A stretch of DNA of 64,000 nucleotides, taken from NCBI GenBank assembly GCA_030018135.1, contig JASEGJ010000003.1:27083-91082 (forward strand), read 5' to 3'. The number at the start of each line of letters is the position of its first letter. Positions within the stretch are counted from its first letter, which is position 1. The notes beneath the pieces are model-generated. The model was not told the DNA's origin and ran no database searches. It was given only the letters and a program-made list of their open reading frames with translations. This stretch comes from Candidatus Hodarchaeaceae archaeon. GTDB lineage: Archaea > Hadarchaeota > Hadarchaeia > Hadarchaeales > Hadarchaeaceae. Below, piece after piece: positions 6,733 through 55,358 of this stretch. The translations under genes and the position numbers were made by a program.

Positions 6733-6736
6733 TAAA

Positions 6737-7971: not shown

Positions 7972-7972
7972 G

Positions 7973-10037: not shown

Positions 10038-10122
10038 TTTAGTTGGGCCGTGGAACCAAAATCACTGAAAGAAGGGATAGATGTTTACGGCAAGGAGAAA
10101 CTACAAAAATTGGTGAATAAGA

Positions 10123-10971
10123 GTGAGGATCTATTTAGATTGCATCCCGTGCTTCGTGAGGCAGGCTTTGGAAGCGAGCAAGATGGCTACGAGGAACAAA
10201 AACAAACAAGAAAAAGTCTTGAAGAAAGTTTTATCTGAGATTGGGAAAACTTCGTTAAAAAACAAGATACCATCTGATATTGCTCATAAAGTTCACCGCA
10301 TAATCAGAAAAATGACAGGGAATAACGATCCTTACAAGAAATTGAAAGACCAGTGCAACAGAAAAGCGCTGAGGATGTACCCGGACCTTAAACAAAAGGT
10401 CGCTGGGTCTAAAGATAGATTGCTGACGGCGACAAAACTCGCCATAGCTGGAAACATTATCGATTTTGGGCCCGGTTCTGAGTTCAATCTGGAGAAAACA
10501 ATAGAGGAAGTTCTAGTTCAGGATTTCGCTATAAATCATTTTAATCGGCTTAGGGAAGCGTTGCAAAAATCTGAAAAGATTGTATATTTAGGAGACAATG
10601 CAGGTGAGATAGTTTTCGATCGGATTCTCTTGGAAGAATTGAAGGATAAAGAGATCACATTTGTGGTCAAAGGAGGGCCCATCATAAATGATGCAACGGT
10701 CGAAGATGCAAAATTCGCTGGCATAGACAAAATTGCTGAGATTAAAACAATAAGCAATGGGGAGCCTGGCACGGGGCCGAAGAGAAATTCAAAGGAATTT
10801 ACAAATTTCTTAAAAAGCGCCGATGTCGTGATTAGCAAAGGGCAGGGAAACTATGAAGCCTTAAGCGAAGTGAACGCGAACATATTCTTCTTGCTCAAGG
10901 TGAAGTGCCCAACGATTGCTGGGGATATCGGAGTTAAAATTGGTGGTATCGTCGTAAAACAATCGTGTTAG
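10123..10971 (+). CDS. DUF89/ARMT1-like damage-control phosphatase
   Basis: DCIPCF, DPYK, AIAGNIIDFG, DNAGEIVFD, PIINDAT, ISKGQGNYE, LKVKCP. Confidence 0.9.
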   Translation: MRIYLDCIPCFVRQALEASKMATRNKNKQEKVLKKVLSEIGKTSLKNKIPSDIAHKVHRIIRKMTGNNDPYKKLKDQCNRKALRMYPDLKQKVAGSKDRLLTATKLAIAGNIIDFGPGSEFNLEKTIEEVLVQDFAINHFNRLREALQKSEKIVYLGDNAGEIVFDRILLEELKDKEITFVVKGGPIINDATVEDAKFAGIDKIAEIKTISNGEPGTGPKRNSKEFTNFLKSADVVISKGQGNYEALSEVNANIFFLLKVKCPTIAGDIGVKIGGIVVKQSC

Positions 10972-10991
10972 TTGGTTGAGGCGATCCCAAG

Positions 10992-11075
10992 ATGTCGGAG
11001 ACCAAGCTCGTGAGCGCCTGCCTTTTTGGGGTCAACTGTAGTACGACGGTCAAAACAACTTTAACGAGAAAGACA
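10992..11075 (+). pseudogene. DUF523 (2-thiouracil desulfurase-like) 5' remnant
   Basis: MSETKLVSACLFGVNC then, after a 1-bp shift, YDGQNNFNEK (family motif VSACLLGxxCRYDG); rest absent. Confidence 0.6.
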
Positions 11076-11278
11076 AATGCTTGAAGGTCAGGCGGCAGCG
11101 CTCCGGCAGCAATTGGATCAATCAAGAAGAGGCTTGAAGAGCTCAGCAAAATGTAGGGCCCAATCGTCTTATCAATGAGTCCGACAACAGGGGTGAAAAA
11201 GTGCTACGATAAGTGTGTAGCCTCATCTTGAATCAGCTGGATACACATTTATTTTGTGCAATCGCCAGAAAAAAATGA

Positions 11279-12136
11279 ATGGTGGGGCAAGTAGAAGAAA
11301 GGATGAAAGAAATACAGGAACAGGAAAGGCGCCTCAAAATACGGATGGCCAAAATCAAGTATAAACTGGCGATACTGAGTGGAAAGGGCGGGGTCGGCAA
11401 GAGTACCATCACCGCTAATTTAGCCATTGCTTTTGCACGCAAGGGTCACAAGGTGGGTGTTTTGGATGTTGATATTCACGGCCCGAGTATTCCCAAAATA
11501 CTCGGCATGAGGGGGCAGGAGTTGACTGCAGGGCGGCTTGAAGGTGTGGGCATCTTTCCGGCCAAAGGTCCGCTCGACATCAAAGTCATCTCCATGGATT
11601 TCCTCCTCCCAGATGACGAAACCCCGGTTATTTGGCGCGGTCCGATGAAGATGGGTGCGATCAGGCAATTTTTGGCGGATGTGGCGTGGGGTGACTTGGA
11701 TTTTCTGTTTATTGATGTCCCGCCAGGAACTGGGGACGAGCCGCTCAGCTTGATGCAATTGTTGCCAGACATCACGGGTGTCATCGTAGTAACTGCACCA
11801 TCCGAGGTTTCTCAGATCGTCGTCAAGAGAGCAGTAGGATTTACAAGGGAGCTGCACGTGCCGGTGGTTGGCATCGTAGAGAACATGAGTGGGTTCGTTT
11901 GTCCAAAATGTGGTGCAGAATTCGACATTTTAGGAACTAGTGGTGGGCAAAAAATATCAGAGCAACTTGGCATCCCATTTTTGGGCAAGATTCCAATCGA
12001 TCAAAAGATATGTGAGGATTCAGACAGGGGAACGCCTTTCGTCATCGAGCGTGCTGAAACTCCGGCGGCTAAGGCCTTCATGCGAGTGGTTGATAAAGTG
12101 GAGGGGTATTTAAAACAACTGGGAGTGCGGGCTTGA
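11279..12136 (+). CDS. mrp: Mrp/NBP35 (ApbC) Fe-S cluster carrier ATPase
   Basis: SGKGGVGKST, DVDIHGPS, IWRGPMK, DVPPGTGDE, ENMSGFVCPKCG. Confidence 0.92.
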   Translation: MVGQVEERMKEIQEQERRLKIRMAKIKYKLAILSGKGGVGKSTITANLAIAFARKGHKVGVLDVDIHGPSIPKILGMRGQELTAGRLEGVGIFPAKGPLDIKVISMDFLLPDDETPVIWRGPMKMGAIRQFLADVAWGDLDFLFIDVPPGTGDEPLSLMQLLPDITGVIVVTAPSEVSQIVVKRAVGFTRELHVPVVGIVENMSGFVCPKCGAEFDILGTSGGQKISEQLGIPFLGKIPIDQKICEDSDRGTPFVIERAETPAAKAFMRVVDKVEGYLKQLGVRA

Positions 12137-12891
12137 TCGTCGACGAGTTATTGGGTCTGGTCGGGGAGCGGAGAAGCCAGCTAGAAGACCTGACGCTCTC
12201 GAGGGTATGCGTGAGCCTCTGCTATACCGCGGTGATGCTCGATAACGGCTACGTTGGGCTCTGCCACACGCCTACCGAGGACATTGCACACACTCATTGG
12301 GGCCGCAGGCGGGACTTCCACGGCTTCAAGGCCTTGGAAATCACGCGCCTGGCGAATTCGCTTGACATGATTGAGAGGACCGTTGGCATAGCGGCATTGA
12401 ACGCCCTCTCACAGTACCTGATGGACTCTGAAGGTTATGAGCGGCAGTTTGGAATGGACGCCTTTAATGCGATAGATGTAAAGGAGGAAGACAGCGCCGC
12501 GGTGGTTGGGTACATGAGGCCCCTAGTCGGGAAGCTGAGGGCAAAGGCCCGCGAAGTCCACGTTTTCGAACGCAACCCCCAATTGAGGGGGGATGCCCTG
12601 CCTGATACTTTTGTCGACTCGATATTGCCGAAAGCGGATATCGTGGTTATAAGCGGGTCGAGTTTAGTCAATGGAACCCTTGATAGGTTGCTGGAGCTAT
12701 CCAAAAGAACTAGATTCGTGATTTTTGCAGGGCCAACGGCCAGCACTTTACCAGAGCCTCTTTTCAAGCGGGGTGTAAGCGTCGTGGCGGGCGTTCGCGC
12801 GAAAGGTCCTAAGGTGATGGGTGCAGTAGCCGAGGCCAAACCATTCGTGGCATTCAAACAGCTTGTGGAGAAGTATATTTTAAGGAGATGA
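12133..12891 (+). CDS. DUF364 Rossmann-like protein
   Basis: GIAALNALSQ, VVGYMRP, VFERNP, VISGSSLVNGTLD, GPTAS. Confidence 0.8.
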   Translation: MIVDELLGLVGERRSQLEDLTLSRVCVSLCYTAVMLDNGYVGLCHTPTEDIAHTHWGRRRDFHGFKALEITRLANSLDMIERTVGIAALNALSQYLMDSEGYERQFGMDAFNAIDVKEEDSAAVVGYMRPLVGKLRAKAREVHVFERNPQLRGDALPDTFVDSILPKADIVVISGSSLVNGTLDRLLELSKRTRFVIFAGPTASTLPEPLFKRGVSVVAGVRAKGPKVMGAVAEAKPFVAFKQLVEKYILRR

Positions 12892-12911
12892 AAACAGCCT
12901 AAGGGGTAAGA

Positions 12912-13520
12912 GTGAATCGGCTTAAGCACATCGCTGCAGAGCTCAAAGAGCATGCACCTTTCACCGCTTTTGGAGCGGGCGTAGGGATGGTTGTAATGGC
13001 TGTTGTGTGTCTAACCAAACCCGACCCAGAGGTCTCTCACCACACCTTCCACGTCCTGCATCCCGCCCACATGCTACTGAGCTCGATCGTGACCGCCGCG
13101 ATGTTCAGGCTGCATAGGAGGGGTGTCAGATCCTCGATAGTCGTCGGACTCGTGGGAGCAGCGGGAATATGCGCGATAAGTGACATATTGTTCCCCTACG
13201 TGGGAGGTACTTTGCTCGGGGCTAGGATGACTTTGCACGTGTGCCTCTTAAAGCACCCGTGGCTCGTGCTTATACCAGGAGTCGTTGGCGCGACAATTGG
13301 TGCCCTTACACGCCGCCCTACCAAGTGCCCGCACGCGGCGCACGTGCTAATAAGCACCCTCGCATCGCTCTTCTACCTCATGGCGTTTGGGGTGGTGGAT
13401 TGGCTCCCGGTGTTTCCGCTCGTATTCGTGGTACTGTTCATAGCGGTATGGATCCCATGTTGCACCAGTGATATCGTGTTTCCCCTCTTGTTCGTGAGGG
13501 AAGGGAGGCATCGGAGGTGA
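12912..13520 (+). CDS. His/Cys-rich integral membrane protein of unknown function
   Basis: EHAPFT, FHVLHPAH, SDILFPY, PHAAHVLIS, PCCTSDIVFP; about 6 TM segments. Confidence 0.7.
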   Translation: MNRLKHIAAELKEHAPFTAFGAGVGMVVMAVVCLTKPDPEVSHHTFHVLHPAHMLLSSIVTAAMFRLHRRGVRSSIVVGLVGAAGICAISDILFPYVGGTLLGARMTLHVCLLKHPWLVLIPGVVGATIGALTRRPTKCPHAAHVLISTLASLFYLMAFGVVDWLPVFPLVFVVLFIAVWIPCCTSDIVFPLLFVREGRHRR

Positions 13521-13524
13521 CCTC

Positions 13525-13920
13525 GTGGACGAATTGGATGAAATACGCAAGAGGGGGATGAAAGAGCTGATGCGGAAATATTTGGGGAAAAAGGAAGCGT
13601 TTGGCAAACCCATTCAGGTCACGGACGAAACATTCGACCGAGTCATCAAGGCCCATCCCGTAGTCGTGGTGGACTTCTGGGGTGAGTGGTGCCCGCCATG
13701 TCGCTTAATCGCGCCAATCATCGAGGAGCTCGCAAGGGATTACGCAGGAAAGGTGATATTCGGGAAGCTGAACGTCGATGAGAACAAAGCTACCGCGGTG
13801 AGGTATGGTATAACGGCGATCCCGACCTTACTGATTTTTAAGAACGGTAAGCTGGTCGACCAAGTGCTCGGCGCTGTGTCGAAGCGGCACTTGGAGGAAA
13901 AAATTAGAAAAACGATTTAA
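13525..13920 (+). CDS. trxA: Thioredoxin
   Basis: DFWGEWCPPC, KLNVDEN, AIPTLLIFKNG. Confidence 0.92.
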   Translation: MDELDEIRKRGMKELMRKYLGKKEAFGKPIQVTDETFDRVIKAHPVVVVDFWGEWCPPCRLIAPIIEELARDYAGKVIFGKLNVDENKATAVRYGITAIPTLLIFKNGKLVDQVLGAVSKRHLEEKIRKTI

Positions 13921-15819: not shown

Positions 15820-16062
15820 CACTGATCGACAATTTTCTCCAAGCCTTCCCTTTCGTCGATATCAATGCCGCCACACGAGCCGCCTGGGCTTTACTCTGCA
15901 CGAGGATCACGCCTGCCCTTTCGAGTTTTCTTCGTTGCACCGATAGGTTTTGCGGATCGCGGGGTGTGTCAAATCGAGGCGACAATGCTCAAGTGCCCCT
16001 TCTCTGCCCCCACGGCATGCTTTGCTTCACCGATCGCTTTTGCGAGTTCATCCGCTGGGTTT
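15820..16062 (-). pseudogene. FdrA-like (acyl-CoA synthetase-like) C-terminal remnant
   Basis: NPADELAKAIGEAK...HLSIVASI / shift / DPQNLSVQRRKLERAGVILVQSKAQAARVAALI; no 5' portion. Confidence 0.55.
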
Positions 16063-16352
16063 TAAAGGCCTCTCGGATGGAGTGGCATGTGCTTTTGCTC
16101 GGGCCAAAACCTTCACGATCCTCGATGTAGGGGGCAGAAAGGTTCAGGTGAAAGTCATCGCCAACCGGCAATTTCTGCGAGCGCGGCCGCGGACGGGCGG
16201 TAGTTCAAATGCTTTCGGAGGAGGGCGTGGATGTTGCGATCGCGGGCGAGTTCGGCCCGGGGGCGGCGGCATTTCTCCAAAAGAATAGAATCGACACGGT
16301 CGTGGAAAAAGCCGGCACTAAGGTTGTCGACTTGCTGAGGGGCAAATATTGA
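16060..16352 (+). pseudogene. NifB/NifX-family remnant
   Basis: KGLSDGVACAFARAKTFTILD / shift / VVQMLSEEGVDVAIAGEFGPGA...LLRGKY*; paralog of 6737-7102 lacking a start. Confidence 0.65.
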
Positions 16353-16436
16353 AATACGATATCGCATAGTGCATTCCTCACGAGTTGGCTCTGAGGAGCT
16401 GGGCCTTCCATCAAACCTAGGTCTTAGGAGCACGGC

Positions 16437-17102
16437 CTACCATCGACTTTCTTTAACGAGTCGGTGGGCCATCCTCACGTGCATGTCCGCAGACTCCTCG
16501 ACGACCGGCCCGTGGCCGGGAAGCAGCTTCTGCACCTCCAGTCTAGCCAACCTCCGCAGCGATTTCAGCATTGCCGCCGCGTCGCCCGTCGGCAAATCAA
16601 CGCGCCCGATGCCTTCACAGAAAACAGTGTCCCCCGAGAAGAGGAGCCGCTGCTTTGGCTCGTACAGGCATATGCTACCCAGCGTGTGGCCAGGAGTATG
16701 CAACACCTCGAGCTTGAGTTTACCGAGCTTAATGCGGTCGCCCTCGCGTAACTCCCGCGCAACCTCCATTGGCCCCAACCTTCCACCGAAGCCTCCTGCT
16801 AGCGTGATAGTTTGATCCCCCTTCCGAAGCAGCTCCGCCTCGAGCTCATGGATCGACACCTCGCAGCCCGCAGCGACGAAATCCCGGTCGCCGCCAGCGT
16901 GATCGAAGTGGCAGTGGGTGTTGATGATGAGTTCGATGTCGCCCGGCTTCAGGTTAAAATCGGCCAGATTTCGTTTGACCGACTCGAAGTTCATGCCCGT
17001 GCCCGCGTCGATGAGCGCTACGGTCTCGTCGATGATCAAGTAGATATTCGAGTCGAATCCAAAACCACCTATACTGTGCACCTCTGCCAATTTCACCGCC
17101 AA
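16437..17102 (-). CDS. MBL-fold hydrolase (glyoxalase II-like)
   Basis: THCHFDHAGG, HTPGHTLG, FSGDTVF, GRVDLP, PGHG. Confidence 0.9.
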   Translation of the reverse strand: MAVKLAEVHSIGGFGFDSNIYLIIDETVALIDAGTGMNFESVKRNLADFNLKPGDIELIINTHCHFDHAGGDRDFVAAGCEVSIHELEAELLRKGDQTITLAGGFGGRLGPMEVARELREGDRIKLGKLKLEVLHTPGHTLGSICLYEPKQRLLFSGDTVFCEGIGRVDLPTGDAAAMLKSLRRLARLEVQKLLPGHGPVVEESADMHVRMAHRLVKESRW

Positions 17103-17117
17103 AATACGGATGGTGGG

Positions 17118-18209
17118 CTAAGTTATGACATTTTCTAGTCCAACCTCGCGAGCTATTTCGAGCGCCCTACCAAATTCATCGCTCGTCAGTCGCCTGTTCA
17201 GTTCCTCGAACTCATGGGCCCGATATTCTGGCCTGTACTGGTCCATCAAATTCACACGAACCATTGAGCCCAAGTTCTCGGCTATCCATTCGAGCACCGG
17301 GCGGGTGCAGCATTCGATGTGGTTGGGAAGGACTAGATGGCGGACGATGAGCTCTGAGTCAGCAAAAGCGAGCCTATGATTGCGTGCAACGATTTTGAAA
17401 AAATTTGGCACCTTTGAATACTTGAGTGCACACTTATCGTCTGCATACTTAAAATCGGTTAAATAGACATCCTGCGTCCCGAAAAGCAGTTTCATTGCCT
17501 CGAGCGACATGTAGAAGTTAGAGTTCCAAACACTCGGTACGCTTACTTCACACAGGTTAAGCGTCTCCAGGATCGTATGAAGGTGAGGAGTAGGGGAACC
17601 ACCGACCCAGTTGACGTTTCTAGCCCCATCATGACGTTGGGCTTCGACGAGTCTGGCAAGCGTCCGAGGCGAGACTTCGACTCCCCCTCTTGGATCTTGG
17701 GAGATGTCATAGTTCTGGCAGAAGCAGCACTTGAAGGTGCAGCCGTTAAAAAAGATCGTGTAACTCGGCACAAGCTCCGGCTCTTCGCCCATGTGGATGA
17801 ACTCCGATGCTATTCGCGACCGTTCACTCACCCCACAGACCCCAACTTTCCCCGCAGTTCGGTCGACCACACACCTGCGCTCGCAGAAGTGGCAAGATTT
17901 CAGGATTCGCCGGGCGAGTTCCACCTTTAAGTCGAGCAGCGAGGGCTCTGGTCGCTCGAGGTCCTCAAGCCTCGCCTTGCCCCCGTCGATGTGCGCGAGC
18001 AGCTTGCGGAACTCCCTCAGGCCGCGATCGTGCGCGCGCCACAGCTCCTCATCGCCCGCCGAAAGGTCGACCTTGACCTCCGCACGCTTGCACACCAAGA
18101 AGCGCGCCGGGAGCTCGCCCCCCATGACCGCGAAGTAGCGGCCGAGCGATTTCCGCGCCCGCTCGTCCTTGAGCACCGCCACCGCGTCCGGCCTCAAAAC
18201 CCGCCACAT
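17118..18209 (-). CDS. pflX: PflX-like radical SAM protein
   Basis: CHFCERRC, HMGEEPEL, GCTFKCCFCQN, NWVGGSPTP, RHLVLPNH, MDQYRP. Confidence 0.85.
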   Translation of the reverse strand: MWRVLRPDAVAVLKDERARKSLGRYFAVMGGELPARFLVCKRAEVKVDLSAGDEELWRAHDRGLREFRKLLAHIDGGKARLEDLERPEPSLLDLKVELARRILKSCHFCERRCVVDRTAGKVGVCGVSERSRIASEFIHMGEEPELVPSYTIFFNGCTFKCCFCQNYDISQDPRGGVEVSPRTLARLVEAQRHDGARNVNWVGGSPTPHLHTILETLNLCEVSVPSVWNSNFYMSLEAMKLLFGTQDVYLTDFKYADDKCALKYSKVPNFFKIVARNHRLAFADSELIVRHLVLPNHIECCTRPVLEWIAENLGSMVRVNLMDQYRPEYRAHEFEELNRRLTSDEFGRALEIAREVGLENVIT

Positions 18210-18272
18210 TTGCCAGCCCCATATATGTTTTTAAATCAGCCCCACAAAAGGGTTGTCGCATCAGGTGTCATC

Positions 18273-19139
18273 ATGATAGTGGTTGCTGGCCCAGCTTCAG
18301 GTGAATTAGCCGCGCGGGTCGCCAAGGCCTTGAAGTGTTCGCTCATCGAGCCAGAACTCAAACGCTTCCCGGATGGCGAGAGCTACGTGCGCATCGACCA
18401 CAAGTTCGAGGGCGAACACGCCGTGGTCGTGCAATCCACCTGCCATCCGGTGAACGACAATTTCATGGAGCTATTTCTGCTCTTGGATACCACCAAGGAC
18501 TTGGGCGCCAAGCGCGTGACGGCGGCAGTGCCCTATTTTGGCTACGCCCGGCAGGATAAGCGCTTCAAGCCCGGCGAGGCCATCAGCGTTCGGACCATGT
18601 GCAAGCTGATCGAGCGCGCTGGCGCGGATGATCTGCTGACGATCGATATCCATGAGGATGAAATAATGGCGAACTTCGCGATCCCCGCATACAACCTCAC
18701 CGCAATGCCGCTGATCGGCCGCTACCTCGCAAACCTCGACCTTCGAGATCCGGTCGTTCTGGCGCCGGACCCCGGGGCGTTGCGCCACGCCCGTCGCGCC
18801 GCGGCCGAGTTCATGGCGGACTACGATTACCTCGAAAAGACCAGGCTGACCTCAACCAAGGTCGCGATGCGCCCCAAGCGACTCAGCGTGTCCGGGAGGG
18901 ACGTCGCGATAGTCGACGACATAATCAGCACGGGCGGCACGGTAATCGAGGCCACCAAGGTACTCAAAAAGCAGGGAGCCCGCAAGATCTACGCAGCTTG
19001 CACTCATCCGGTGCTCGTGGGCAAGGCCGCGCAAAAGATCCTGGCAGCCGGCGTGCGAGAAATCATCTCGACCGATACCATCAAGCATAAGACAAATATG
19101 ATATCCGTAGCGCCAGTCATAGCAGAATCGATCCATTAG
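18273..19139 (+). CDS. prs: Ribose-phosphate pyrophosphokinase
   Basis: KRFPDGESYVRI, PYFGYARQDK, APDPGA, IVDDIISTGGT; ATG at 18273. Confidence 0.95.
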   Translation: MIVVAGPASGELAARVAKALKCSLIEPELKRFPDGESYVRIDHKFEGEHAVVVQSTCHPVNDNFMELFLLLDTTKDLGAKRVTAAVPYFGYARQDKRFKPGEAISVRTMCKLIERAGADDLLTIDIHEDEIMANFAIPAYNLTAMPLIGRYLANLDLRDPVVLAPDPGALRHARRAAAEFMADYDYLEKTRLTSTKVAMRPKRLSVSGRDVAIVDDIISTGGTVIEATKVLKKQGARKIYAACTHPVLVGKAAQKILAAGVREIISTDTIKHKTNMISVAPVIAESIH

Positions 19140-47967: not shown

Positions 47968-48249
47968 TCAAGGCTCCCCTCGCCCAGACTTGGCCACGAA
48001 AAGCCCGCAGTGGCACCTTCCCATGCTCCTGATCTCCTCCTTGTGGTAAACGCATGGGCAGATGATCCTAGCGTCCTGCTTCTTATCGCCGGTGACAACC
48101 CTGCAGGGGCAGTACCTGTAGCCGAACTTCTCCTCGTTCTTTAGCAGCCCCTGTATGACGAAGTCCACGATCTTTTCGTCCGGGTTTATCTCGAACCCCT
48201 GCGACTCGGCGTACTTTCTCAACGCGCTCAAGAGCTGCTCCGCGTTCAT
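47968..48249 (-). CDS. Ferredoxin-thioredoxin reductase catalytic subunit
   Basis: YCPCR, ICPC, CHCGLF. Confidence 0.9.
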   Translation of the reverse strand: MNAEQLLSALRKYAESQGFEINPDEKIVDFVIQGLLKNEEKFGYRYCPCRVVTGDKKQDARIICPCVYHKEEIRSMGRCHCGLFVAKSGRGEP

Positions 48250-48345
48250 CCCGCCACCAACTTGATTCGGCGAGCGAACATAAAACCTTTCAAGCCGCGC
48301 CCCGAGCATTTTTTAGGCGGGCGACTCTAGAGAGCTGGGGTTTGG

Positions 48346-50172
48346 GTGTTTGGCTACAAGGGCAAGCTGTTGCGCGTCGATCTAACGGAGGGCTCGCTCG
48401 AGGAGCGCCCCACGTCCGAGCAGCTCGCCCGCGCCTTCCTGGGCGGCCGCGGCTTGGGGGCGGCGCTGCTGTACAAGGAGCTGGAGCGAGGCGTCGACCC
48501 CCTCTCCCCGAAAAATGTCTTGATATTCATGACCGGCCCGGCAGTCGGCACGCCGCTGCCAGCCTGCCCCCGCTGGGAGGTCGTCACCAAATCTCCGCTC
48601 ACGAGCATGTATTGCTGCGGCTCGGTCGGCGGGTTCTTCGGCGCGGAGCTGAAGTTCGCTGGCTACGACGGGATAATCGTGCGGGGCAAGGCGGCCAACC
48701 CCACCTACTTGGCGATAATCGACGGCAGGGCCGAGCTGCGCGATGCGGGCAAACTCTGGGGGATGAACACCGACGAGGTCGAGGCGGCGCTCCGCAAGGA
48801 ACTCAAGGACAGCCGCGCGCGCGTCGCAAGCATCGGCCCGGCGGGCGAGAACTTGGTCAAGATCGCGAGCATTCAGGCGGACCTCCGGTCGGCGGGACGC
48901 GGAGGCCCTGGCGCGGTGATGGGGTCGAAGCTGCTCAAGGCGATCGCCGTCAGGGGGCATGAAAGGATAGAGGTGGCCGACGAGGACGGACTGATGGCGC
49001 TCACCCGCGAGCTTGTTTCGAGCATGAAGGAGAGCCGGGCGGTTCAGAACTTCTCCAGGTGGGGAACGCCGCAGTTCGTCGACCCGGTCAACGAGGGAGG
49101 CCTCTGGCCGACCAGGAACTTTCGGGAGGGCTCCTTCGAGGGGGCGAGGCGCTTGAACGCCGAGAGCATGCGCGAGCGCCTGGTGAAGCGCGACACCGCC
49201 TGCTATGCGTGCCCCATAGCGTGCGGCAAGCTGAGCGTGGTCGGCGATGGCCCATACGCGGGCGTCGTGGTCGAGGGCCCGGATTACGAGACGCTCTGGG
49301 CCTTCGGCGCGCAGTGCGGCGTGGATCGCCTCGATGCGATCGCCGCGGCGAACCTGTGGTGCGACCGCTATGGCATCGATACGATTTCCGCGGGCAACGC
49401 GATCGGCTTCGCCATGGAGTGCTTCGAGCACGGCCTGCTGACCTCGAGCGACACGGGCGGGCTGGATCTGAAGTTCGGCAATCACGAGGTCTTCGTCGAA
49501 CTCCTGCGCAGGATCGCGTTTCGGGAGGGCATTGGCGACCTGCTCGCGGAGGGTGTCCGCGCGGCGGCTGAACGGATGGGGAGGGGCGCGGAGAAATTCG
49601 CTATGCACGTAAAGGGCCTGGAGCTGCCGGCGTACGACCCGAGGGGCGCGTGGGGCATGGCCTTGGCGTATGCCACGGCATGTCGCGGCGGCTGTCATCT
49701 CAAGGCCTGGACCCTCGCGGCGGAGGTGTTCGAGGCGAGGTACGACCGCTTCTCGAGCGAGGGAAAGGCGAAGCTGGTGTTCGACCTCCAGAACATACGC
49801 GCCGCGGTGGATTCGATAGGCGTGTGCGTCATAGGCAGCCGCGCGATGGGCGTGCGGGAGATGGCGAGGGTGATGACGGTCACGACCGGCTGGAGCTTTA
49901 AAGCCGACGACATAACCAAGGCGGGCGAGCGGATCTACAACCTCGAGCGCCTGCTAGCCGTGCGGGACGGCATCTCGCGCGAGGACGACACCCTGCCGCC
50001 GAGGCTGTTGAACGAGACCCTGCCCCATGGCCCGTGCAAGGGCATCGCGCTCCGAGGGGAGGACCTCGATCGCATGCTCGATGAGTACTACGCGCTGCGC
50101 GGGTGGGATCGCCGCGGCAGGCCAAAAAAAGATAAGATAGAAGAACTCGGGATAACCAAGTTGCTGGGGTAG
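48346..50172 (+). CDS. aor: Tungsten-family aldehyde:ferredoxin oxidoreductase (second paralog)
   Basis: LLRVDLT, KSPLT, ELKFAGYD, GAVMGSKLLKA, CYACPIAC, GPDYET, IDTIS, YDPRG, RGGCHL. Confidence 0.93.
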   Translation: MFGYKGKLLRVDLTEGSLEERPTSEQLARAFLGGRGLGAALLYKELERGVDPLSPKNVLIFMTGPAVGTPLPACPRWEVVTKSPLTSMYCCGSVGGFFGAELKFAGYDGIIVRGKAANPTYLAIIDGRAELRDAGKLWGMNTDEVEAALRKELKDSRARVASIGPAGENLVKIASIQADLRSAGRGGPGAVMGSKLLKAIAVRGHERIEVADEDGLMALTRELVSSMKESRAVQNFSRWGTPQFVDPVNEGGLWPTRNFREGSFEGARRLNAESMRERLVKRDTACYACPIACGKLSVVGDGPYAGVVVEGPDYETLWAFGAQCGVDRLDAIAAANLWCDRYGIDTISAGNAIGFAMECFEHGLLTSSDTGGLDLKFGNHEVFVELLRRIAFREGIGDLLAEGVRAAAERMGRGAEKFAMHVKGLELPAYDPRGAWGMALAYATACRGGCHLKAWTLAAEVFEARYDRFSSEGKAKLVFDLQNIRAAVDSIGVCVIGSRAMGVREMARVMTVTTGWSFKADDITKAGERIYNLERLLAVRDGISREDDTLPPRLLNETLPHGPCKGIALRGEDLDRMLDEYYALRGWDRRGRPKKDKIEELGITKLLG

Positions 50173-50176
50173 TGAC

Positions 50177-51535
50177 ATGCGCGACAAGAGGCTCTTCGGC
50201 ACGAGGGGCATCAGGGGGCCGATAGCCACGAAGGTCACGCCCGAGCTGATGCTGAAGCTTGGGCTGGCCCTGGCGACCCATGTCGGGGAGGGGGAAATAG
50301 TGGTGGGGCGCGACACCCGCACATCGGGCGAGATGTTGCAGCACGCGTTCATGGCAGGGGTGCTGGCGGGCGGCTGCGATGTCGTGGACATAGGTCTGGC
50401 TCCCTCGCCGTGCGTCGCGTTCACGACCAAGGAGCTAGGCGCCAAGGCTGGGGCGATCATAACCGCCTCGCACAATCCCCCGCCGGACAACGGCGTCGCT
50501 TTCTACGGCGCGGACGGCATGGAGTACCTGCCGAGCCAGGAGCTCGACATCGAGGACCTGGTGTTGAACGAGAAGCTCAAGCTCGCCGGCTGGGACTCTC
50601 TGGGGAGGGTGCGGAGCTACCCTCGCGCGACCTCGCGCTATATCGAAGCCATCAAGAGGGCGGTCAAGGTCAAGCGCGGCTTCAAGGTCGTCGTCGACTG
50701 CGCCAACGGCTCCGGCTCGGTGGTCACGCCCTACCTGCTCCGCGAGCTGGGCTGCAAGGTCATGACGCTCAACTCCCATCCAGATGGCCATTTCCCCGGG
50801 CGGGCGGTGGAGCCGCAGCCCTGGAACCTCGGCGACCTGATGAACACGGTGCGCGAGGTCGGAGCCGATGCCGGCTTTGCGCACGACGGCGACGCGGACC
50901 GCTTCGCGGCCGTCGATGAAAACGGCAAGTTCATAAAGCACGATGCCCTCATCGCGTTGTTCGCGAGGCTGGCGGTCGGGGCCGAGAAGGGGGGAAAGGT
51001 GGTCACGAGCATCAACACCTCCGTCGCGATAGAGGAGGTCGTCGCGGAGGCGGGCGGCCGCACGATCCGAACCGCGCTCGGCGACATACACGCGGCGATG
51101 CTCGAGCACGGCGCGATATTTGCGGGGGAGCCGGGCAAGATCATCTTCCCGGAGTTCGGCAGGTGGATAGACGGCGTGTACGGCGTCGCGAAGATGTTGG
51201 AGCTGATGTCGCTGGAGGGGAAGCCGCTCTCGAGGATCGTCGCGAGCGTGCCGGACTACCCCATGTACCACGAGGACTTTTCATGCCCCGACGAGCGCAA
51301 GGCCGGCTTCATGGAGAACATCCGCAAGTACATGCTCGAGGAGGTGGACGGGATACGCGATATCCTGGACATCGATGGCCTGCGCGTCAACCGCAAGGAT
51401 GGAAGCTGGTTGCTCATCCGGGTGTCGGGGACCGAGCCAAAGGCCAGGATGGTACTCGAGGGCAGGACGCGGGCCGGGGCCGAGAGGCTCAGGGATATCG
51501 GCCTCAGGGGCATCAAAAAGTTCTTGAAGCAATGA
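50177..51535 (+). CDS. glmM: Phosphohexomutase (phosphoglucosamine mutase/PMM-PGM)
   Basis: LFGTRGIRG, GRDTR, ITASHNP, HDGDADR, RVSGTEP. Confidence 0.88.
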   Translation: MRDKRLFGTRGIRGPIATKVTPELMLKLGLALATHVGEGEIVVGRDTRTSGEMLQHAFMAGVLAGGCDVVDIGLAPSPCVAFTTKELGAKAGAIITASHNPPPDNGVAFYGADGMEYLPSQELDIEDLVLNEKLKLAGWDSLGRVRSYPRATSRYIEAIKRAVKVKRGFKVVVDCANGSGSVVTPYLLRELGCKVMTLNSHPDGHFPGRAVEPQPWNLGDLMNTVREVGADAGFAHDGDADRFAAVDENGKFIKHDALIALFARLAVGAEKGGKVVTSINTSVAIEEVVAEAGGRTIRTALGDIHAAMLEHGAIFAGEPGKIIFPEFGRWIDGVYGVAKMLELMSLEGKPLSRIVASVPDYPMYHEDFSCPDERKAGFMENIRKYMLEEVDGIRDILDIDGLRVNRKDGSWLLIRVSGTEPKARMVLEGRTRAGAERLRDIGLRGIKKFLKQ

Positions 51536-51581: not shown

Positions 51582-51601
51582 GATGTCACAGCTGTGACAT
51601 C
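51582..51601. repeat. Perfect 20-bp palindrome
   Basis: GATGTCACAGCTGTGACATC is its own reverse complement. Confidence 0.9.
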
Positions 51602-51725: not shown

Positions 51726-51759
51726 CCTAAAAATTTAAGTGAAAGCCCAAACCCAAACC
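51726..51759. repeat. Left end: 14-bp direct repeat + 15-bp inverted repeat
   Basis: CCTAAAAATTTAAG-TGAAA-GCCCAAACCCAAACC. Confidence 0.85.
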
Positions 51760-51784
51760 CCTTGGGGTGGTAGGGTATCCCATG

Positions 51785-51810
51785 AATGATAAAATGATAA
51801 AATGATAAAA
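51785..51810. repeat. Tandem 8-bp repeat (AATGATAA)x3
   Basis: AATGATAAAATGATAAAATGATAAAA. Confidence 0.85.
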
Positions 51811-51903
51811 CTAACTCTTATGGCCGTACTTCTTCAACAATACTGCAATAGACCCCACGATCAATATCACAATCATCCGGACGCCAAATTCCTCGGGTGT
51901 CAA
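51811..51903 (-). CDS. Putative 30-aa single-TM microprotein
   Basis: TTG start; MTPEEFGVRMIVILIVGSIAVLLKKYGHKS*; purine-rich AGGGA upstream. Confidence 0.4.
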   Translation of the reverse strand: MTPEEFGVRMIVILIVGSIAVLLKKYGHKS

Positions 51904-51948
51904 GATTTTCCCTACTTTTATTGAAGTTCACTATAACCAAGGCGCAAC

Positions 51949-52035
51949 TTACTTCTTTATCTTTTTCCCGCAACTCGGGCAGAACGCCGCACCCGGAACG
52001 AGTTGAACGCCGCAGAACGGACAGTAACCCTTCCC
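51949..52035 (-). pseudogene. Zinc-ribbon domain C-terminal remnant
   Basis: GKGYCPFCGVQLVPGAAFCPSCGKKIKK* with no in-frame start nearby. Confidence 0.55.
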
Positions 52036-52072
52036 TGTCTGTACACATAAATTAATAATCGATAGAACCTCG

Positions 52073-55000
52073 TTGTTATTGGGAGAAATGCAAATGGAGC
52101 GCGAGGCCAAACTTCAAGACGATCTTAAAAACCTAATCGAAACGGTGACAAAAGAGCGCAGGTTTCACGGGGTTGAGATAACCCACGTTGAGTGGAATTA
52201 CCCCGTAGATGGCAGGGAGGCGGACCTCGTGATCTTCATGCGGGGCGAAATTCCCTTCATGTTTATCGAAACCAAGCGAAAAGTTGGCAGGGGCGCCCTA
52301 TTTGATCCCTTGGATGCTTCGGTTGTCGGCCAGGTGATGAGTTACGCCGCGCTCTGGAAACGTTCACATCCGGAGCACGAAATCCCGTTTGTCGCCACGG
52401 CAAATCCTGAATCCATCGCGATTTTCAAAGTCCCCAAAAATATCGAGGAGTACATCGACCGAACCGCCTTGATGAAAAGGGACTACAGGGGCGCCATCAA
52501 GCGGAAGTACCTTTCCATAATCGAGAACCAGATGGTGGGCAAACTCCAGAGACTTTCGTTAACAAGGGAATTTATCGACTATTTGCTCGACAGGCTTGCC
52601 GAAGAATACGCCGGGAAAAGGATAACCAAGCCCGAGCCAAGCGAGGCCATGATAGAGAGGTTCAGGGGATTTGTCAAAACCGTGGCTGATAAGTGCCTAC
52701 CCCTTCTGGAATCGAAGTTAAAAGAAGATGGAATTTTCAGGGGAGAGATAGAAAAACTTGGATACAAGGCGGAGCCCGATGTCCTACCTCAAACCGCGAG
52801 AAATCTGGCGCGTATGATGGCATACGTGCTCATGAACAAACTCATTTTTCGTAAAGTGCTGGAAAAAGTTACAGGTTGCCTCCGATGGTTTTGCTCGATT
52901 CGTCCTCGCTGGTTAGGTTCAGGGAGGATTTGAAGCGTAATTTCGACGGGGCCGTTGAGGTAACCCAAGATTTCGAGCCCATCTTCCGTACTGGAGTGTA
53001 CGATCAAATTCCAATCCCAGATGATCCGGGGCTGATGGAGTACATCAACGACTTCATCTATGACCTCGAAAGCGTCGATGTTGTCAAAATCGGGGACCAG
53101 ATAGGGTACATGTACGAGGTGCTCATCCCGCCCGAGGAGAGGCACCAACTCGGTCAGTTCTATACGCCGCCGTGGGTTTGCGAACTCATAACTCGCTGGT
53201 GTATCAGAAGCCCGGAGGATGTGGTTTTGGACCCGGGCGTCGGCAGCGGGGGCTTTCTCCTGCAGGCTTACAAAAGGCTTCAGGAGAAGAAGATCGGCCC
53301 CAGCGTGATTTCGGTTGTGCGTTCAGAAATTCATGAGAGGATTTTGAGCCAACTTTACGCTCTGGACCTAAACCCGTTCCCGTCCCATCTTTCTGCCATG
53401 GGGGTCTCTATCAAGAACATCAAGGTCCCATCCACGAAATTGAACGTGCTGGTGTCAGACTTCTTCGCACTGCAACCAGGACAAAAAGTTTTGAGCCCAC
53501 AAGGTGAAGACGATTGTTCGGGAGGAAGAGCGCGAGATCGTTATGCCGAAATTCGATGTTGTGGTCGGGAATCCACCGTACACGAGGTGGACCGAGATCC
53601 ACGATGAGACGCAGGGGTTGATCAGAAAACGCCTAGGAAATCTAATGAGGAGGTACGGATTAACCCCACAAGTTTCTCGCGGGGTAGAGCCCGGCATCTA
53701 CACCTACTGGATAATGCACGCCACCGACTTCCTGAAAGAGGACGGAAGGCTGGGGATGATAATCTCGAACACATGGCTCCAGACGGACTATGGGATCGGT
53801 TTTGGGAGCTTTCTTCTGGACAACTTCAGGATAAAGGCGATAATAGACACGGCTCTCAAACTTTTCAAGGATGCCCTGGTGACAACGTGTATAGTGCTCG
53901 CTGAAAGGGAGTCAGACGAGGCAAAGAGATTGGAGAATGAAGTTGTTTTTATCCACATCCCGGGCGAGGTCAAAAGCGCGGATGTGGGCAGGCTTTTGAG
54001 AGCCGTTGAAACTGGAAGTTCAGATGATTATACCGTAACGGTGGTGAAACAGAAAGAATTGCCTAGGGACCGAAAATGGATAGACATTTTCTTCAAGACC
54101 GTGGATATTTCAAAACACCCACTTATGACAAAACTCGGCGAACTTTTCGAGCCGCTGAGAGGAAACACAGTTTGGGCTGAATGGTCTATCTCTCACGGGA
54201 GAAGACCAGACCCCGGTAGTAGCGACTTCACTTATTTGTCGCCATCAAAAATTAAAGAGTTTAACCTCGATAAGTGGGCTTACCCAAATGTCCCGTTAAA
54301 GGATGCCTTGGTTTACCCTGCCATAACCAGCGCTAGGCAGACGAACTACTTTACATTCACCGAGGAGGACTGGGAGGAGATGCGCGGATCCGACGATAGG
54401 TGTTACATGTTCGTGTGCCATGTGCCTAGGAAAAAGCTCCCCAAGGAGATGGCGGACTACGTCAAGTGGGGCGAGACCGAGTGCATGACGAGAATAAGGG
54501 GAACTAGGAAAGGTGGGAGGCTGGCAAGCGAGACAGAGGCGGCAAAAACTAGGGCAAATGAGCCAAAGCGATTTCACGGCTGGTACGATTTGGGCGGAGT
54601 AATCCCAGCACCCATATTCGCCATCCGCCAAGCATGGTATAAGACTAGGTTTACGTGGTGCAGGTTTCCAGTAACTATGTATGACGCACTAATAGCCCTT
54701 GCACCCAAAAAGAGTGTTTCTCTCGATGAGGCCCAGACTAAGGCACTTCTAGCTTATCTCAATTCAAGCTTTGCACAGGCTTACATCGAAACTGATGGCA
54801 GGAAAAGTCCTGGGGGGATAATAGGCTTCGAGGTGAACATAGCCAGAGAGATGCCCGTTCTAGATGTAAGGAAATTGAACAATAAACAACTGAACTCGCT
54901 GGCCAAGCTTTTCGACAAGCTGGAGCACGAGGCGAGGAAAATCGGTGGCGCTTCTCGCAGAGAGGAGATCGAGAAGCTTAAGCCAAAGATATACGAGATC

Positions 55001-55114
55001 GACCGCGCCGTGGCCTCGCTCTTGAGCATCAAGGATGAAGATGTCAAAAATGTGCAGGCCCAGGTAGATTTGATGGTAGAGAGGAGGGTCAGTGTGGCGA
55101 AGAAGGCCCGCTAA
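52073..55114 (+). pseudogene. Type IIG-like fused restriction endonuclease-m6A methyltransferase-TRD, split by two frameshifts
   Basis: ADLVIF..FIETK (PD-(D/E)xK) in 52073-52933; QLGQFYTP and DPGVGSGGFL in 52876-53607; VVGNPPY and TRD (LAYLNSS) in 53504-55114. Confidence 0.85.
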
Positions 55115-55193
55115 CACAATATGTATGTATATATACCCTTATCCTATGCTAGCTTTGTCAGTAAAGACGCTACATAAGCAAATAGCCCATTCT

Positions 55194-55221
55194 GGTTTGG
55201 GTTTGGGCCTAAAAATTTAAG
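55194..55221. repeat. Right end: 15-bp inverted repeat + 14-bp direct repeat
   Basis: GGTTTGGGTTTGGG-CCTAAAAATTTAAG. Confidence 0.85.
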
Positions 55222-55358
55222 GCACCGACCAAGTTCCAACTTTGCCGCATATGGATAAGTTCGTCGCGATGCATATACGTCGCACCGCGTCCTTGGATGG
55301 ATTCCTCCATGAAGCCGTTATATTTTTATTGGACAATCAACAGTTATTGGGCGATCGA

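Follow-up and report, generated by a model that had tools for sequence, protein, structure and literature searches.

An enzyme-less restriction-modification cassette with (CCCAAA)n ends in an archaeal genome, probably a fossil of casposase-mediated mobilisation

How a restriction-modification (R-M) gene can come to lie between exact direct and inverted repeats, accompanied by no recombination enzyme of its own, is the question raised by positions 51726-55221 of the DNA analysed here, a stretch of 64,000 nucleotides (hereafter the window) from a metagenome-assembled genome (MAG) of 1.1 Mb, 45 contigs and 93% completeness that belongs to a Hadesarchaea-like archaeon. The first-pass annotation had described two exact repeats around this gene, one direct (14 bp) and one inverted (15 bp), both of which are indeed present, and the segment (C33:78808-82303 in contig coordinates) comprises the following features, followed by one flank:

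51726-51739, + strand: left direct repeat CCTAAAAATTTAAG, 14/14 match to the right copy; an AT-rich, near-palindromic box read as a target-site duplication
51740-51744, + strand: spacer TGAAA, 5 nt, separating the left copies of the direct and inverted repeats; absent from the right end
51745-51759, + strand: left terminal inverted repeat GCCCAAACCCAAACC, 15 nt, 100% complementary to the right one
51760-52087, no strand: non-coding subterminal DNA that includes ATGATAAA three times in tandem, at about 51786-51809
51949-52110, - strand: 53-aa ORF with a zinc-ribbon match (PF13240, E = 3.9e-8), overlapping the start of the R-M frame; uncertain as a real gene
52073-55114, + strand: Type IIG-like R-M gene with N6_Mtase and Eco57I domains (PADLOC MTase_II and REase_MTase_IIG; PF02384, PF07669)
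55194-55208, + strand: right terminal inverted repeat GGTTTGGGTTTGGGC
55208-55221, + strand: right direct repeat CCTAAAAATTTAAG, read as a target-site duplication
55222-55313, + strand: lineage-specific flank of 92 bp, also present after a solo end on contig C12

The inverted repeat is flush with the direct repeat on the right, where the two overlap by 1 nt (a common C), and is offset by TGAAA on the left, a spacer that possibly reflects damage to the left terminus after insertion. When the left and right boxes are compared by hand count, they agree at 14/14 positions in direct orientation versus 10/14 if read inverted. Between the ends there is nothing other than the R-M gene and short non-coding DNA; as had been noted at first pass, the ORFs of 51726-55221 include no integrase or transposase, and neither Cas1 nor a family B DNA polymerase was found among them. 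No tRNA (ARAGORN) and no known RNA (Rfam, E up to 1) was detected at the left boundary, and the subterminal stretch 51760-52087 has no similarity to the flanks of R-M homologs in relatives. Both repeat motifs occur exactly only at these two places in the window, where a search allowing up to two mismatches gave 3 and 2 matches, shuffled sequence giving 0.55 and 0.32 on average. In the whole genome the G-rich motif has three exact copies, being the two cassette ends and one on contig C12.

The R-M gene, which the first-pass annotation had assumed to be a functional defence gene, is broken twice, by a 1-nt deletion near 52863 that lies within an A-run and by a 2-nt deletion near 53498 outside any homopolymer, and is thereby spread over three frames (52073-52933, 52876-53607 and 53504-55114). 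A Type IIG enzyme is a single polypeptide that joins an N6-adenine methyltransferase domain (Eco57I/MmeI type) to an N-terminal nuclease region; its domains are present here and the intact reading frame is missing, which speaks against function; the N-terminal 286-aa part of the product matched no family. Homologs in three relatives (G029, G016 and G023) retain intact open frames of 1008-1027 aa, with a nucleotide identity to the window's gene of 78%, 73% and 63%, respectively. They stand in unrelated contexts and have no common cassette flanks, the G016 gene being flanked by direct repeats of which the downstream copy resembles a tRNA 3' end. The gene would have been acquired from related archaea as cargo.

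Considering that the genome is a MAG of 45 contigs, that many motif sites in other MAGs are located near contig ends and that the first frameshift falls in an A-run, the junctions could be ascribed to chimeric assembly or binning and the frameshifts to sequencing errors. We regard this as scarcely credible, since the 91-kb contig extends beyond the cassette in both directions and shows conserved synteny blocks there, the second frameshift is outside any homopolymer, and an ordered structure of inverted and direct repeats is not produced by assembly errors.

The third copy of the G-rich motif is informative with respect to the right boundary, as positions 55194-55313 of the window match C12 4821-4958 at 83%, a 19-bp tandem duplication in C12 included. 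Since this match runs 92 bp past the right direct repeat, the right flank cannot count as plain unique DNA of the host; homology of the thiolase upstream region to that of a relative (G040) begins only at 55323. The 92-bp flank is possibly a conserved, leader-like target flank or the end of a second, decayed element, and its occurrence on C12 is accounted for only in part. Two other candidates for it were rejected: a conserved small gene beginning there, as the 55-aa ORF of C12 was found in 0 of 64 relatives, and the terminal repeat of a classical casposon of the window's order, to which similarity was not significant (best z = 2.3, p about 0.03, uncorrected over 16 comparisons). All three copies in the window's genome have one derived box variant in common, and given this variant and the 92 bp shared with C12, the two boxes could owe part of their identity to a duplicated module rather than to one insertion. 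No left end was found on C12, even at 3 mismatches, nor was a second copy of the cassette found.

The first-pass annotation had proposed to look for an empty-site allele and had named the lack of glmM/thiolase adjacency in relatives, together with a lack of other copies and of an empty site, as evidence against its reading. A 24-nt probe for the empty site, which detects exact matches only, had 0 matches in the metagenome collection, and glmM and the thiolase gene are adjacent in 0 of the 40 relatives searched, all of which belong to other genera; gene order around both genes is scrambled in these 40. The composite pattern of the window's genome was retrieved from 3 metagenome contigs, all unrelated, and a search for sequencing runs that contain this DNA returned none.

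The proposal that the cassette belongs to a family has been borne out, as other copies with other cargo were found. Members of this family end in inverted (CCCAAA)n termini that border directly on an AT-rich, near-palindromic box, and the repeats once described as telomere-like match such element ends instead. The composite of (TTTGGG)2 and the box was present in 98 stretches of GTDB genomes (80 listed, with 85 instances) against an expectation that we estimate at about 0.1; among those listed, nearly all are from Bathyarchaeia, with a Hadesarchaea MAG in addition, and none was found in viral contigs. All 4 of the listed loci with two copies in opposite orientation show the arrangement of the window's cassette, while a fifth pair spans two loci (L158) and a sixth was seen with a relaxed partner pattern. 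Two pairs lacking Cas1 were also compared by hand count, the box of L111 agreeing at 11/13 positions inverted versus 7/13 direct, and that of L096 being ambiguous in orientation. Two short pairs have the look of decayed, miniature versions of such elements: L114 spans 0.7 kb with no listed ORF of at least 70 aa, and L111 spans 1.5 kb with remnants of genes. Within genus g7, a sister genus, two sites (G048:C34 and G046:C157) are alike over 61 bp (93%); this match takes in 37 interior bp, the G-rich end and the first part of the box, beyond which the two sequences differ. G048:C34 is also alike to L098, over 181 bp (98.9%) that begin exactly at the G-rich motif, and the interiors of these two are unrelated. 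As judged from these alignments, one element end recurs at more than one site, and one site encloses unlike interiors.

It has to be asked whether the cassette's two ends could instead be solo remnants of two insertions, or of a tandem array, the R-M gene having arrived by another route. Solo ends far outnumber pairs (one genome, G068, holds 21 distinct sites of which most are solo, with 2 pairs), the right end with its box and 92-bp flank exists as an independent module on C12, the same R-M gene is found in unrelated contexts in the three relatives, and the left end has its aberrant 5-bp offset. Against this, the boxes are identical in direct orientation, asymmetry included, the inverted repeat is perfect over 15 bp, only the R-M gene and short non-coding DNA lie between the ends, and the arrangement is that of all 4 two-copy loci and of the Cas1-bearing elements described below. 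An origin from two remnants is accordingly held to be unlikely.

A second alternative is that motif and box represent a duplicated regulatory element, such as a TATA-like promoter or protein binding site, the gene in between having been acquired horizontally. The box is TATA-like, motif sites are almost all intergenic (5 of 85 are overlapped by an ORF), and in one genome (G003) two of the sites are followed, 40-70 nt downstream, by a gene start. The orientation of flanking genes shows no preference, however (21 (-,-), 14 (+,+), 11 divergent and 8 convergent among the 54 instances with ORFs on both sides), by which a promoter or terminator reading is rejected; moreover, the motif is scarce, genomes of the window's order having 0 to 3 copies each; the homology between genomes ends precisely where the G-rich motif meets the box; and Cas1 elements end in these very sequences. 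We consider a regulatory origin very improbable.

Candidates for the enzyme that acts on these ends are provided by the Cas1-bearing members of the family, Cas1 or accessory-gene matches being located at 16 of 80 motif loci. Four Bathyarchaeia elements with such ends carry a casposase-type Cas1, and no DNA polymerase gene was seen in them. In L157 and L158 a 344-aa Cas1 (PF01867, E = 1.9e-45) lies within the ends, and a 15-16-bp box is identical and directly oriented at both ends, the inverted repeats of L158 extending over about 75 bp (83%); L119 and L121 have the same layout, with Cas1 adjoining the left end. The exact terminus CCCAAACCCAAACC is common to the window's cassette and to L157, L158 and L119, all three from Bathyarchaeia and not from the window's order. 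In L164 the configuration is reversed, a Cas1 fragment being located between a right-type end and a left-type end. A Cas1 tree of 16 sequences, which includes no reference casposases from the literature, separates the four Bathyarchaeia proteins and two casposon Cas1s of the window's order from the 10 others with a support of 100/100, the row L184 of that order representing a 3.9-kb contig that ends before any PolB. With catalytic residues E162, H227, D239 and E242 conserved, the Bathyarchaeia enzymes appear, on the strength of tree and alignment, to form part of the casposase clade. Solved structures were discarded as arbiter, as Cas1 matches CRISPR Cas1 entries and 6opm about equally. The accessory proteins of the Cas1-only elements matched no Pfam or PHROGs family, and their atlas scores, at about 0.81, are too low to serve as evidence. 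Among 65 genomes of the window's order, no complete Cas1-bearing (CCCAAA)n element was found, only solo ends and Cas1 fragments, the latter having 63-79% identity to the Bathyarchaeia enzyme.

Classical casposons are present in the same order. Two genomes (G021 and G037) contain elements with Cas1 and a protein-primed PolB, inverted repeats of 151 nt and 210 nt, and flanking 15-bp direct repeats, AAGTTAAATTTTAAC and AGTTAAGGTTTATAT, which are the same type of box as the direct repeat of the window. Their termini (TTTTTTTATCAT... and TTTTTACATTATT...) are different; the target is thus common with the (CCCAAA)n elements and the ends are not. In the window's own genome, contig C40 has a casposon right terminus homologous to the G021 and G037 ends and adjoining the box AGTTAAGATTTAAC; about 2.9 kb upstream lies the C-terminal fragment of a Cas1. 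This 111-aa fragment, lacking the N-terminal two-thirds including the catalytic Glu, is the sole Cas1 of the genome; an intact Cas1 was not found in the 93% that the assembly represents. PF03175 was not found there either, a weak negative considering that the control search matched in no genome.

The 14-bp box could also be taken as the att core of a tyrosine or serine recombinase, with a circle carrying a G-rich/box/C-rich palindrome as attP. The direct repeat is constant and near-palindromic, and some Bathyarchaeia sites (L050, L096 and L047) read G-rich / box / CCCAAACCCAAA, which is exactly the junction predicted. Such junctions would, however, arise just as readily from tandem or abutting ends with a single duplication in common, a situation on record for casposons (PMC4779613, as far as its accessible text goes). 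In addition, no integrase was identified by Pfam among the cargo ORFs submitted, comprising those of the window's cassette, 6 from L089, 1 each from L096 and L111, and 2 from L158 (of which four proteins had no PHROGs match), autonomous members carry Cas1 with intact catalytic residues, and classical casposons duplicate the same kind of box, of which AGTTAAGGTTTATAT is clearly not palindromic. We therefore judge recombination at an att core to be quite improbable. The hairpin or attP-like circle junction that the first-pass annotation had favoured as mechanism is left without support, the repeats not being att-like; of the three comparisons it had offered, the casposase one fits, with the same ends and with 15-bp duplications of the same kind of box. 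It had also proposed that a constant direct repeat would mean a site-specific core and a variable one a target-site duplication: the type of box proved constant, and this still fits a target-site duplication made by a site-preferring casposase.

Segment 51726-55221 is, in our assessment, probably a non-autonomous, casposase-mobilised cassette that is now a fossil. According to this model, a casposase from elsewhere would have joined both 3' ends of the cassette (each ...TTTGGG) to an AT-rich near-palindromic box at positions staggered by 14 bp, and gap repair would then have yielded the 14-bp direct repeat. The element would since have decayed, as suggested by two frameshifts in the cargo, 5 extra bases at the left terminus and a genome in which the sole Cas1 is a truncated remnant. 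The casposase as mover, and which enzyme it was, are what we infer; the notion of a trans-mobilised cargo cassette is supported by Cas1-bearing elements that have the same ends and the same duplicated box. What speaks against the model is that no intact Cas1 was found in either cassette or genome, that the window's order yielded no complete Cas1-bearing element with such ends, that the inverted repeat is short and offset on the left, that classical casposons of the order end differently, that the box of L111 is inverted and that of L096 ambiguous, that L164 has the reversed configuration, that most sites are solo, that box variant and 92-bp flank recur on C12, and that neither an empty site nor a second copy of the cassette was found. 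Casposons have been defined as self-synthesizing and were first found through cas1 beside polB (PMC4046053, in the portion available), and having neither Cas1 nor PolB, the cassette falls outside the definition of an autonomous casposon. It does possess terminal inverted repeats and a target-site duplication, and, as expected of a non-autonomous derivative, its termini match those of enzyme-bearing elements and its duplication is of the same length and type; an active enzyme source in the same genome was not found.

Among known systems, casposons of Family 1 (Cas1 with protein-primed PolB, in Nitrosopumilus and relatives) are alike in having inverted repeats with a flanking direct repeat of about 14-15 bp, a compact Cas1 to which no further domains are attached, as in the autonomous relatives of the window's cassette, and restriction and methylase genes among the cargo abbreviations of figure legends (PMC4046053, PMC6563490, both as partially available). 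The PF03175-PolB members in the window's own order, with a decayed one in its genome, add to this likeness. For casposons at large, the published figures are a median duplication of 15 nt, a frequent overlap of inverted repeat and duplication, and inverted repeats of 25-602 nt; the 15-nt inverted repeat of the window is shorter than this range. Further differences from Family 1 are the absence of Cas1 and PolB and the (CCCAAA)n simple-repeat termini. Like the duplication length and the overlap, solo ends and tandem elements with one common duplication are published casposon traits that match the observations made here (PMC4046053, PMC4779613, PMC9939771, in the sections available). In Methanosarcina mazei, solo ends next to the target motif outnumber complete elements, duplications are of 14 bp, and the elements are hard to assemble and often at contig ends (Krupovic et al. 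2016, accessible text of PMC4779613). The C12 copy and most Bathyarchaeia sites resemble these solo ends; host lineages, termini and target (palindromic and AT-rich here) differ, and cargo-bearing, enzyme-less bounded units such as those found here are not described for M. mazei in that text.

Artificial mini-casposons, in which a resistance gene is placed between terminal repeats, are integrated in vitro as cargo alone by the A. boonei casposase, need only their termini in cis, produce duplications of about 15 bp, often in tandem, and use a two-part target consisting of an upstream recognition sequence and the duplicated segment (PMC5137440, PMC9939771, as far as available). We propose this mechanism for a natural cargo-only cassette; the mini-casposons are laboratory constructs with a tRNA-Pro target, and the window's cassette would be their natural counterpart. 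MITEs similarly resemble an autonomous family in their ends and duplication, lack a transposase and are moved in trans; classical MITEs, however, derive from DDE-transposase insertion sequences and have short duplications, while the partner here would be Cas1, with a duplication of 14-16 bp. In CRISPR adaptation, the site at which Cas1 inserts DNA is a short repeat, palindromic in part, which is restored through its own duplication, and in the scenario of a casposon origin for CRISPR an ancestral casposon loses its polymerase (PMC6452270, in its available part). The right end and box of the present family resemble G-rich-plus-box sites elsewhere, which may be likened to this regeneration; unlike CRISPR, the family shows neither an array nor Cas2, no sign of transcription or interference was seen, and the units are of kilobase scale with inverted ends rather than spacers.

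The findings point to polymerase-less Cas1 elements as a widespread group that has apparently gone undescribed so far. The literature consulted, supplementary tables aside, holds no account of a (CCCAAA)n-end family or of natural polymerase-less or non-autonomous casposons, and a prior description is possible; given that casposons were first sought as cas1 beside polB (PMC4046053, accessible portion), relatives without polymerase or without any enzyme would have been missed by design. A wider joint reading, which we put forward tentatively and hold to be possible, though less likely than not, is that of a large, undescribed polymerase-less casposon branch in Bathyarchaeia and Hadesarchaea. Its elements would be of 4-5 kb, with a casposase-type Cas1, a few small unassigned genes and (CCCAAA)n termini; insertion at a 15-bp palindromic box would regenerate a G-rich-plus-box target at the right end; the same enzymes would move enzyme-less cassettes with cargo useful to the host, defence genes for instance, across phylum boundaries; and the resulting repeat/insert/repeat units would be a living analogue of the postulated intermediate between casposons and CRISPR adaptation.

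In practical terms, the composite of (TTTGGG)n and GATTAAAWTTTAATC is a simple annotation marker for insertion hot spots and assembly breaks in such MAGs. If the reading holds, casposase mobility would extend to short Cas1-only elements and to cargo-only cassettes able to shuttle defence genes, and its host range to Bathyarchaeia and Hadesarchaea, between which the 63-79% identity of Cas1 fragments hints at exchange. The target would then be a short palindromic repeat that is regenerated at each insertion, and the transition from casposon to CRISPR by polymerase loss and repeat duplication (PMC6452270, available part) would therefore become testable with natural elements.

The segment between positions 51726 and 55221 of the window, which carries an R-M gene, is bounded by repeats whose sequences, positions and asymmetric placement were confirmed by direct check to be as described in the first-pass annotation.

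Repeats and flanking genes of the cassette
51726-51739 and 55208-55221: direct repeat CCTAAAAATTTAAG, exact copies
51745-51759: left inverted repeat GCCCAAACCCAAACC, perfect complement of the right inverted repeat
55194-55208: right inverted repeat GGTTTGGGTTTGGGC
Left flank, ending at 51535: aldehyde:ferredoxin oxidoreductase gene and phosphoglucosamine-mutase-type gene (the latter ending at 51535), a pair conserved in seven relatives
Right flank, from 55359 (conserved start): thiolase gene, then a short-chain dehydrogenase gene and two more genes, a block conserved in four relatives

The inverted and direct repeats are flush at the right end, and TGAAA lies between them at the left end. Exact copies of each motif in the 64-kb window are confined to these positions, the shuffle means for matches with at most two mismatches in the same window being 0.55 and 0.32. 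The window corresponds to C33:27083-91082 of a genome of 1.108 Mb (45 contigs, 93% complete), in which the G-rich (TTTGGG)n motif has three exact copies, two of them at the cassette and one on contig C12, and all three carry one common derived variant of the box, an AT-rich near-palindromic sequence at element ends that is read as target site. Pfam found no recombinase among the ORFs submitted from the segment, in agreement with the earlier claim that none lies inside.

One long gene makes up the cargo; it encodes N6_Mtase and Eco57I domains and matches PADLOC models for Type II methyltransferases and for Type IIG. When aligned with intact homologs of 1008-1027 aa from three genomes (G029, G016 and G023), this gene is spread over three frames, with deletions of 1 nt near 52863 (in an A-run) and 2 nt near 53498 (outside a homopolymer); therefore, the SAM-binding part of the methyltransferase is out of frame. 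Its DNA is 78% identical to the copy in G029, a member of a different family of the same order, and the flanks of the copies in relatives are unrelated to those in the window, from which it follows that the R-M gene has moved horizontally. The homolog in G016 (locus L026, contig C15) is located between direct repeats of at least 15 nt (GGTGGCGGGCCGGAC), the downstream copy being by eye the 3' end of a tRNA gene; there the cargo forms another insertion lacking a recombinase, distinct from the one in the window.

The two flanking blocks were adjacent in 0 of 40 searched relatives, none of them from the same genus (the source genome being the sole member of its genus in the set compared), so that no empty site can be inferred from synteny; the glmM/thiolase adjacency which the first-pass annotation had looked to in relatives was thus not recovered, and an exact 24-nt probe for its proposed empty site had no match in the metagenome collection. 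The oxidoreductase-mutase block (48200-51400) has a GC content of 64-68%, versus 54% for the contig and approximately 50% for the cassette, with a sharp step at the left boundary.

Downstream of its G-rich motif, C12 carries the same box and, beyond it, the 92 bp that also adjoin the window's right direct repeat. Window positions 55194-55313 align with C12 4821-4958, which contains a 19-bp tandem duplication, and similarity begins exactly at the G-rich motif. Homology upstream of the thiolase gene in relatives begins only at 55323, so the 92-bp stretch was not part of the ancestral region preceding that gene; the ORF that would start in it was found in 0 of 64 relatives. This sequence may be the part of the target that is recognised, with two copies in the genome that would each have received an insertion, or alternatively the end of a second, decayed element with a shared duplication. 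The C12 copy is a solo end (one terminus and a box without a partner), no left end being detected there, and its neighbours are housekeeping genes. A palindrome, TCAACACCCCTGTTGA, occurs three times at C12 ~5148-5355; the long intergenic region that holds these copies also contains the solo end and precedes a class II aminoacyl-tRNA synthetase gene. A further 20-bp palindrome, GATGTCACAGCTGTGACATC, with close variants (core TGTCAC-N4-GTGACA), is found at 12 places in the 1.1-Mb genome, sometimes clustered (contigs C10 and C44), with one copy at window 51582-51601 (C33:78664), shortly after the end of the mutase gene; these copies may serve as protein binding sites or form a small repeat family.

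The search for other copies that the first-pass annotation had proposed recovered the family of ends elsewhere, and no second copy of the cassette itself. The exact G-rich motif occurs 10 times in eight other genomes of the window's order, in seven of these instances directly followed by an AT-rich near-palindrome such as GGTTAAAATTTAACC. A degenerate pattern spanning all three copies of the source genome retrieved 98 stretches from GTDB species genomes, the 80 listed holding 85 instances (chance expectation ~0.1, by our own rough estimate), and none from viral contigs. Matches are almost all in Bathyarchaeia MAGs, with one Hadesarchaea MAG in which the matching contig corresponds to contig C70 of G044, a match that places the source genome among Hadesarchaea-like archaea. 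The consensus is (TTTGGG)2-5 followed by GATTAAA-W-TTTAATC, with purine-/G-rich low-complexity sequence on the 5' side and pyrimidine-/C-rich sequence on the 3' side; low-complexity subterminal repeats are common beside such ends. The sites are intergenic (ORF overlap in 5 of 85 instances), and the flanking genes show no preferred orientation (the four possible arrangements numbering 21, 14, 11 and 8 in the 54 instances that have an ORF on each side), which argues against a simple promoter or terminator.

The arrangement seen in the window, [box][(CCCAAA)n] ... [(TTTGGG)n][box], was present in all four listed loci holding two oppositely oriented copies. Only a minority of sites form complete pairs, with five distinct ones among the 80 listed loci plus L158 (the median upstream sequence per site being only 2.2 kb), and one genome, G068, has 21 distinct sites versus two pairs. 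Of the other pairs, L096 encodes a Kelch-repeat protein, L111 contains gene remnants and L114 has no listed ORF of at least 70 aa, and the box is inverted or ambiguous in the Cas1-less pairs L111 and L096. At L107 the box stands in tandem straight after the G-rich end (two copies of GTTAAAATTTAA), and at L047 two boxes 15 bp apart are followed by a CCAAAACCAAAC arm; such layouts could be excision footprints or minimal insertions.

Some of these elements encode a Cas1. Locus L089 (the same place as L157) spans 5.3 kb with a GC content below that of its surroundings and contains a 344-aa Cas1 (PF01867, E = 1.9e-45); immediately inward of its right end, 7.3 copies of a 20-bp unit (AGCGAGCTAACTAACGAACG) form a perfect tandem repeat (5316-5462). 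L158 is a second such element, of 4.35 kb with inverted repeats of ~75 bp (83% identical). In both L157 and L158 a 15-16-bp box is identical at the two ends in direct orientation, and since the L157 box is asymmetric, this identity is not explained by palindromy. L119 and L121 have the same layout with Cas1 adjoining the left end, and L164 has a Cas1 fragment in the opposite configuration. Cas1 or accessory-gene matches were obtained in 16 of the 80 listed loci, many being fragments, and no polymerase-sized gene was found in the Cas1 elements or near two other solo Cas1 genes.

With the L158 Cas1 as query, full-length homologs (36-40% identity) were recovered in three of the order's 65 genomes (G037, G021 and G055), and in the first two of these a family B polymerase of the protein-primed type (PF03175, E = 1e-18 and 5e-25 for G021 and G037, respectively) is encoded no more than ~1.8 kb from Cas1. 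These apparently represent two complete family-1-like casposons (Cas1 plus protein-primed PolB) in Hadesarchaea-like genomes.

Classical casposons of the window's order
G021 contig C8, ~1032-10992 (L183): 151-nt inverted repeats, flanking 15-bp direct repeat AAGTTAAATTTTAAC
G037 contig C13, locus 3950-13547 (L182): 210-nt inverted repeats, flanking direct repeat AGTTAAGGTTTATAT, 15-bp target duplication

A tree was built from 16 sequences, with two duplicate rows, every fragment and the G037 Cas1, which has no single ORF, excluded. In it a 100/100 split sets the solo Cas1s of Bathyarchaeia (four) and those of Hades casposons (two, one of them on a short contig ending before any PolB) apart from ten other Cas1s. 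Residues at the catalytic Glu/His/Asp/Glu positions are kept, and the solo and casposon groups share an insertion absent from other Cas1s. From sequence comparison, the Cas1 of the (CCCAAA)n-ended elements is predicted to be of casposase type, and the classical casposons of the window's order to use the same kind of target box.

Contig C40 carries at ~15825-18960 (L162 9832-12961) a decayed classical casposon, in which a 111-aa ORF, corresponding to no more of Cas1 than its C-terminal third (from the catalytic His), is located between housekeeping genes and a small island. The Cas1 fragment is followed by a 381-aa protein without family assignment, a matrixin-like peptidase and, where the island ends ~2.9 kb downstream of the fragment, a right terminus that is homologous to those of the G021 and G037 casposons and abuts a box (AGTTAAGATTTAAC); no left end was found. 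PolB was not found in the source genome by a search whose control matched in no genome either. The window's own genome has hosted casposons.

Casposase integration is reported to require the element termini alone, five 3'-terminal residues being critical, at a target composed of an upstream recognition sequence and a duplicated segment of ~14-15 bp, with tandem insertions and solo ends known (PMC6614799; PMC4779613; PMC9939771; PMC4046053). A casposase supplied in trans would have inserted the cassette at the AT-rich box, duplicating 14 bp. The cassette would work like a casposon-derived non-autonomous element; lacking both Cas1 and PolB, it falls outside the published definition of a casposon. 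One review describes the polymerase as invariably present (PMC6452270), and the discovery paper describes a screen for cas1 together with polB (PMC4046053). In the literature searched, natural polymerase-less or cargo-only casposon relatives are not described and casposons are not reported from Bathyarchaeia or Hadesarchaea; for both, prior description is possible.

A non-autonomous casposon-derived insertion is our main reading, which we consider reasonably probable, with a casposase as the most likely class of mobilising enzyme. Against it stand the lack of an enzyme in the cassette and of an intact one in the genome, the failure to find a complete Cas1 element with (CCCAAA)n ends in the window's order, the short inverted repeat (15 bp) with its left end offset by 5 bp, the inverted or ambiguous boxes of L111 and L096, the configuration of L164, the single box variant of the source genome and the failure to find an empty site or a second copy of the cassette. 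The idea of a trans-mobilised cargo cassette, put forward in the first-pass annotation, holds, its interpretation as a whole being partly supported. The cassette now looks immobile and non-functional.

Comparisons involving the sister genus bear on mobility. Contigs C34 of G048 and C157 of G046 have 61 bp in common (93%), which cover the G-rich end, the first part of the box and, on the inner side, 37 bp of the element, and the flanks beyond differ; in the G046 element a short Cas1 fragment (76% identity with the enzyme of Bathyarchaeia) lies 2.4 kb inward from the end. L098 and the same G048 contig have unrelated interiors but match over 181 bp (98.9%) from precisely the G-rich motif outward, a pattern of the same kind as that between the window and C12. 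Three motif-bearing contigs, L056, L080 and L098, are binned as bacteria (two Sulfotelmatobacter and one "bacterium"), and in view of its identity to a Hadesarchaea-family contig at least L098 looks mis-binned. Homology breaks at the G-rich/box junction, as predicted for a transposon end beside a target duplication, and these comparisons may be taken as direct signs of mobility. Short C-terminal Cas1 fragments were also observed in G060 (contigs C131, C135, C43 and C94) and G050 (C63), and together with that of G046 (C157) they are 63-79% identical to the Bathyarchaeia solo Cas1, versus 34-39% for the Hades casposases, which suggests that these elements may have been exchanged recently between Bathyarchaeia and Hadesarchaea.
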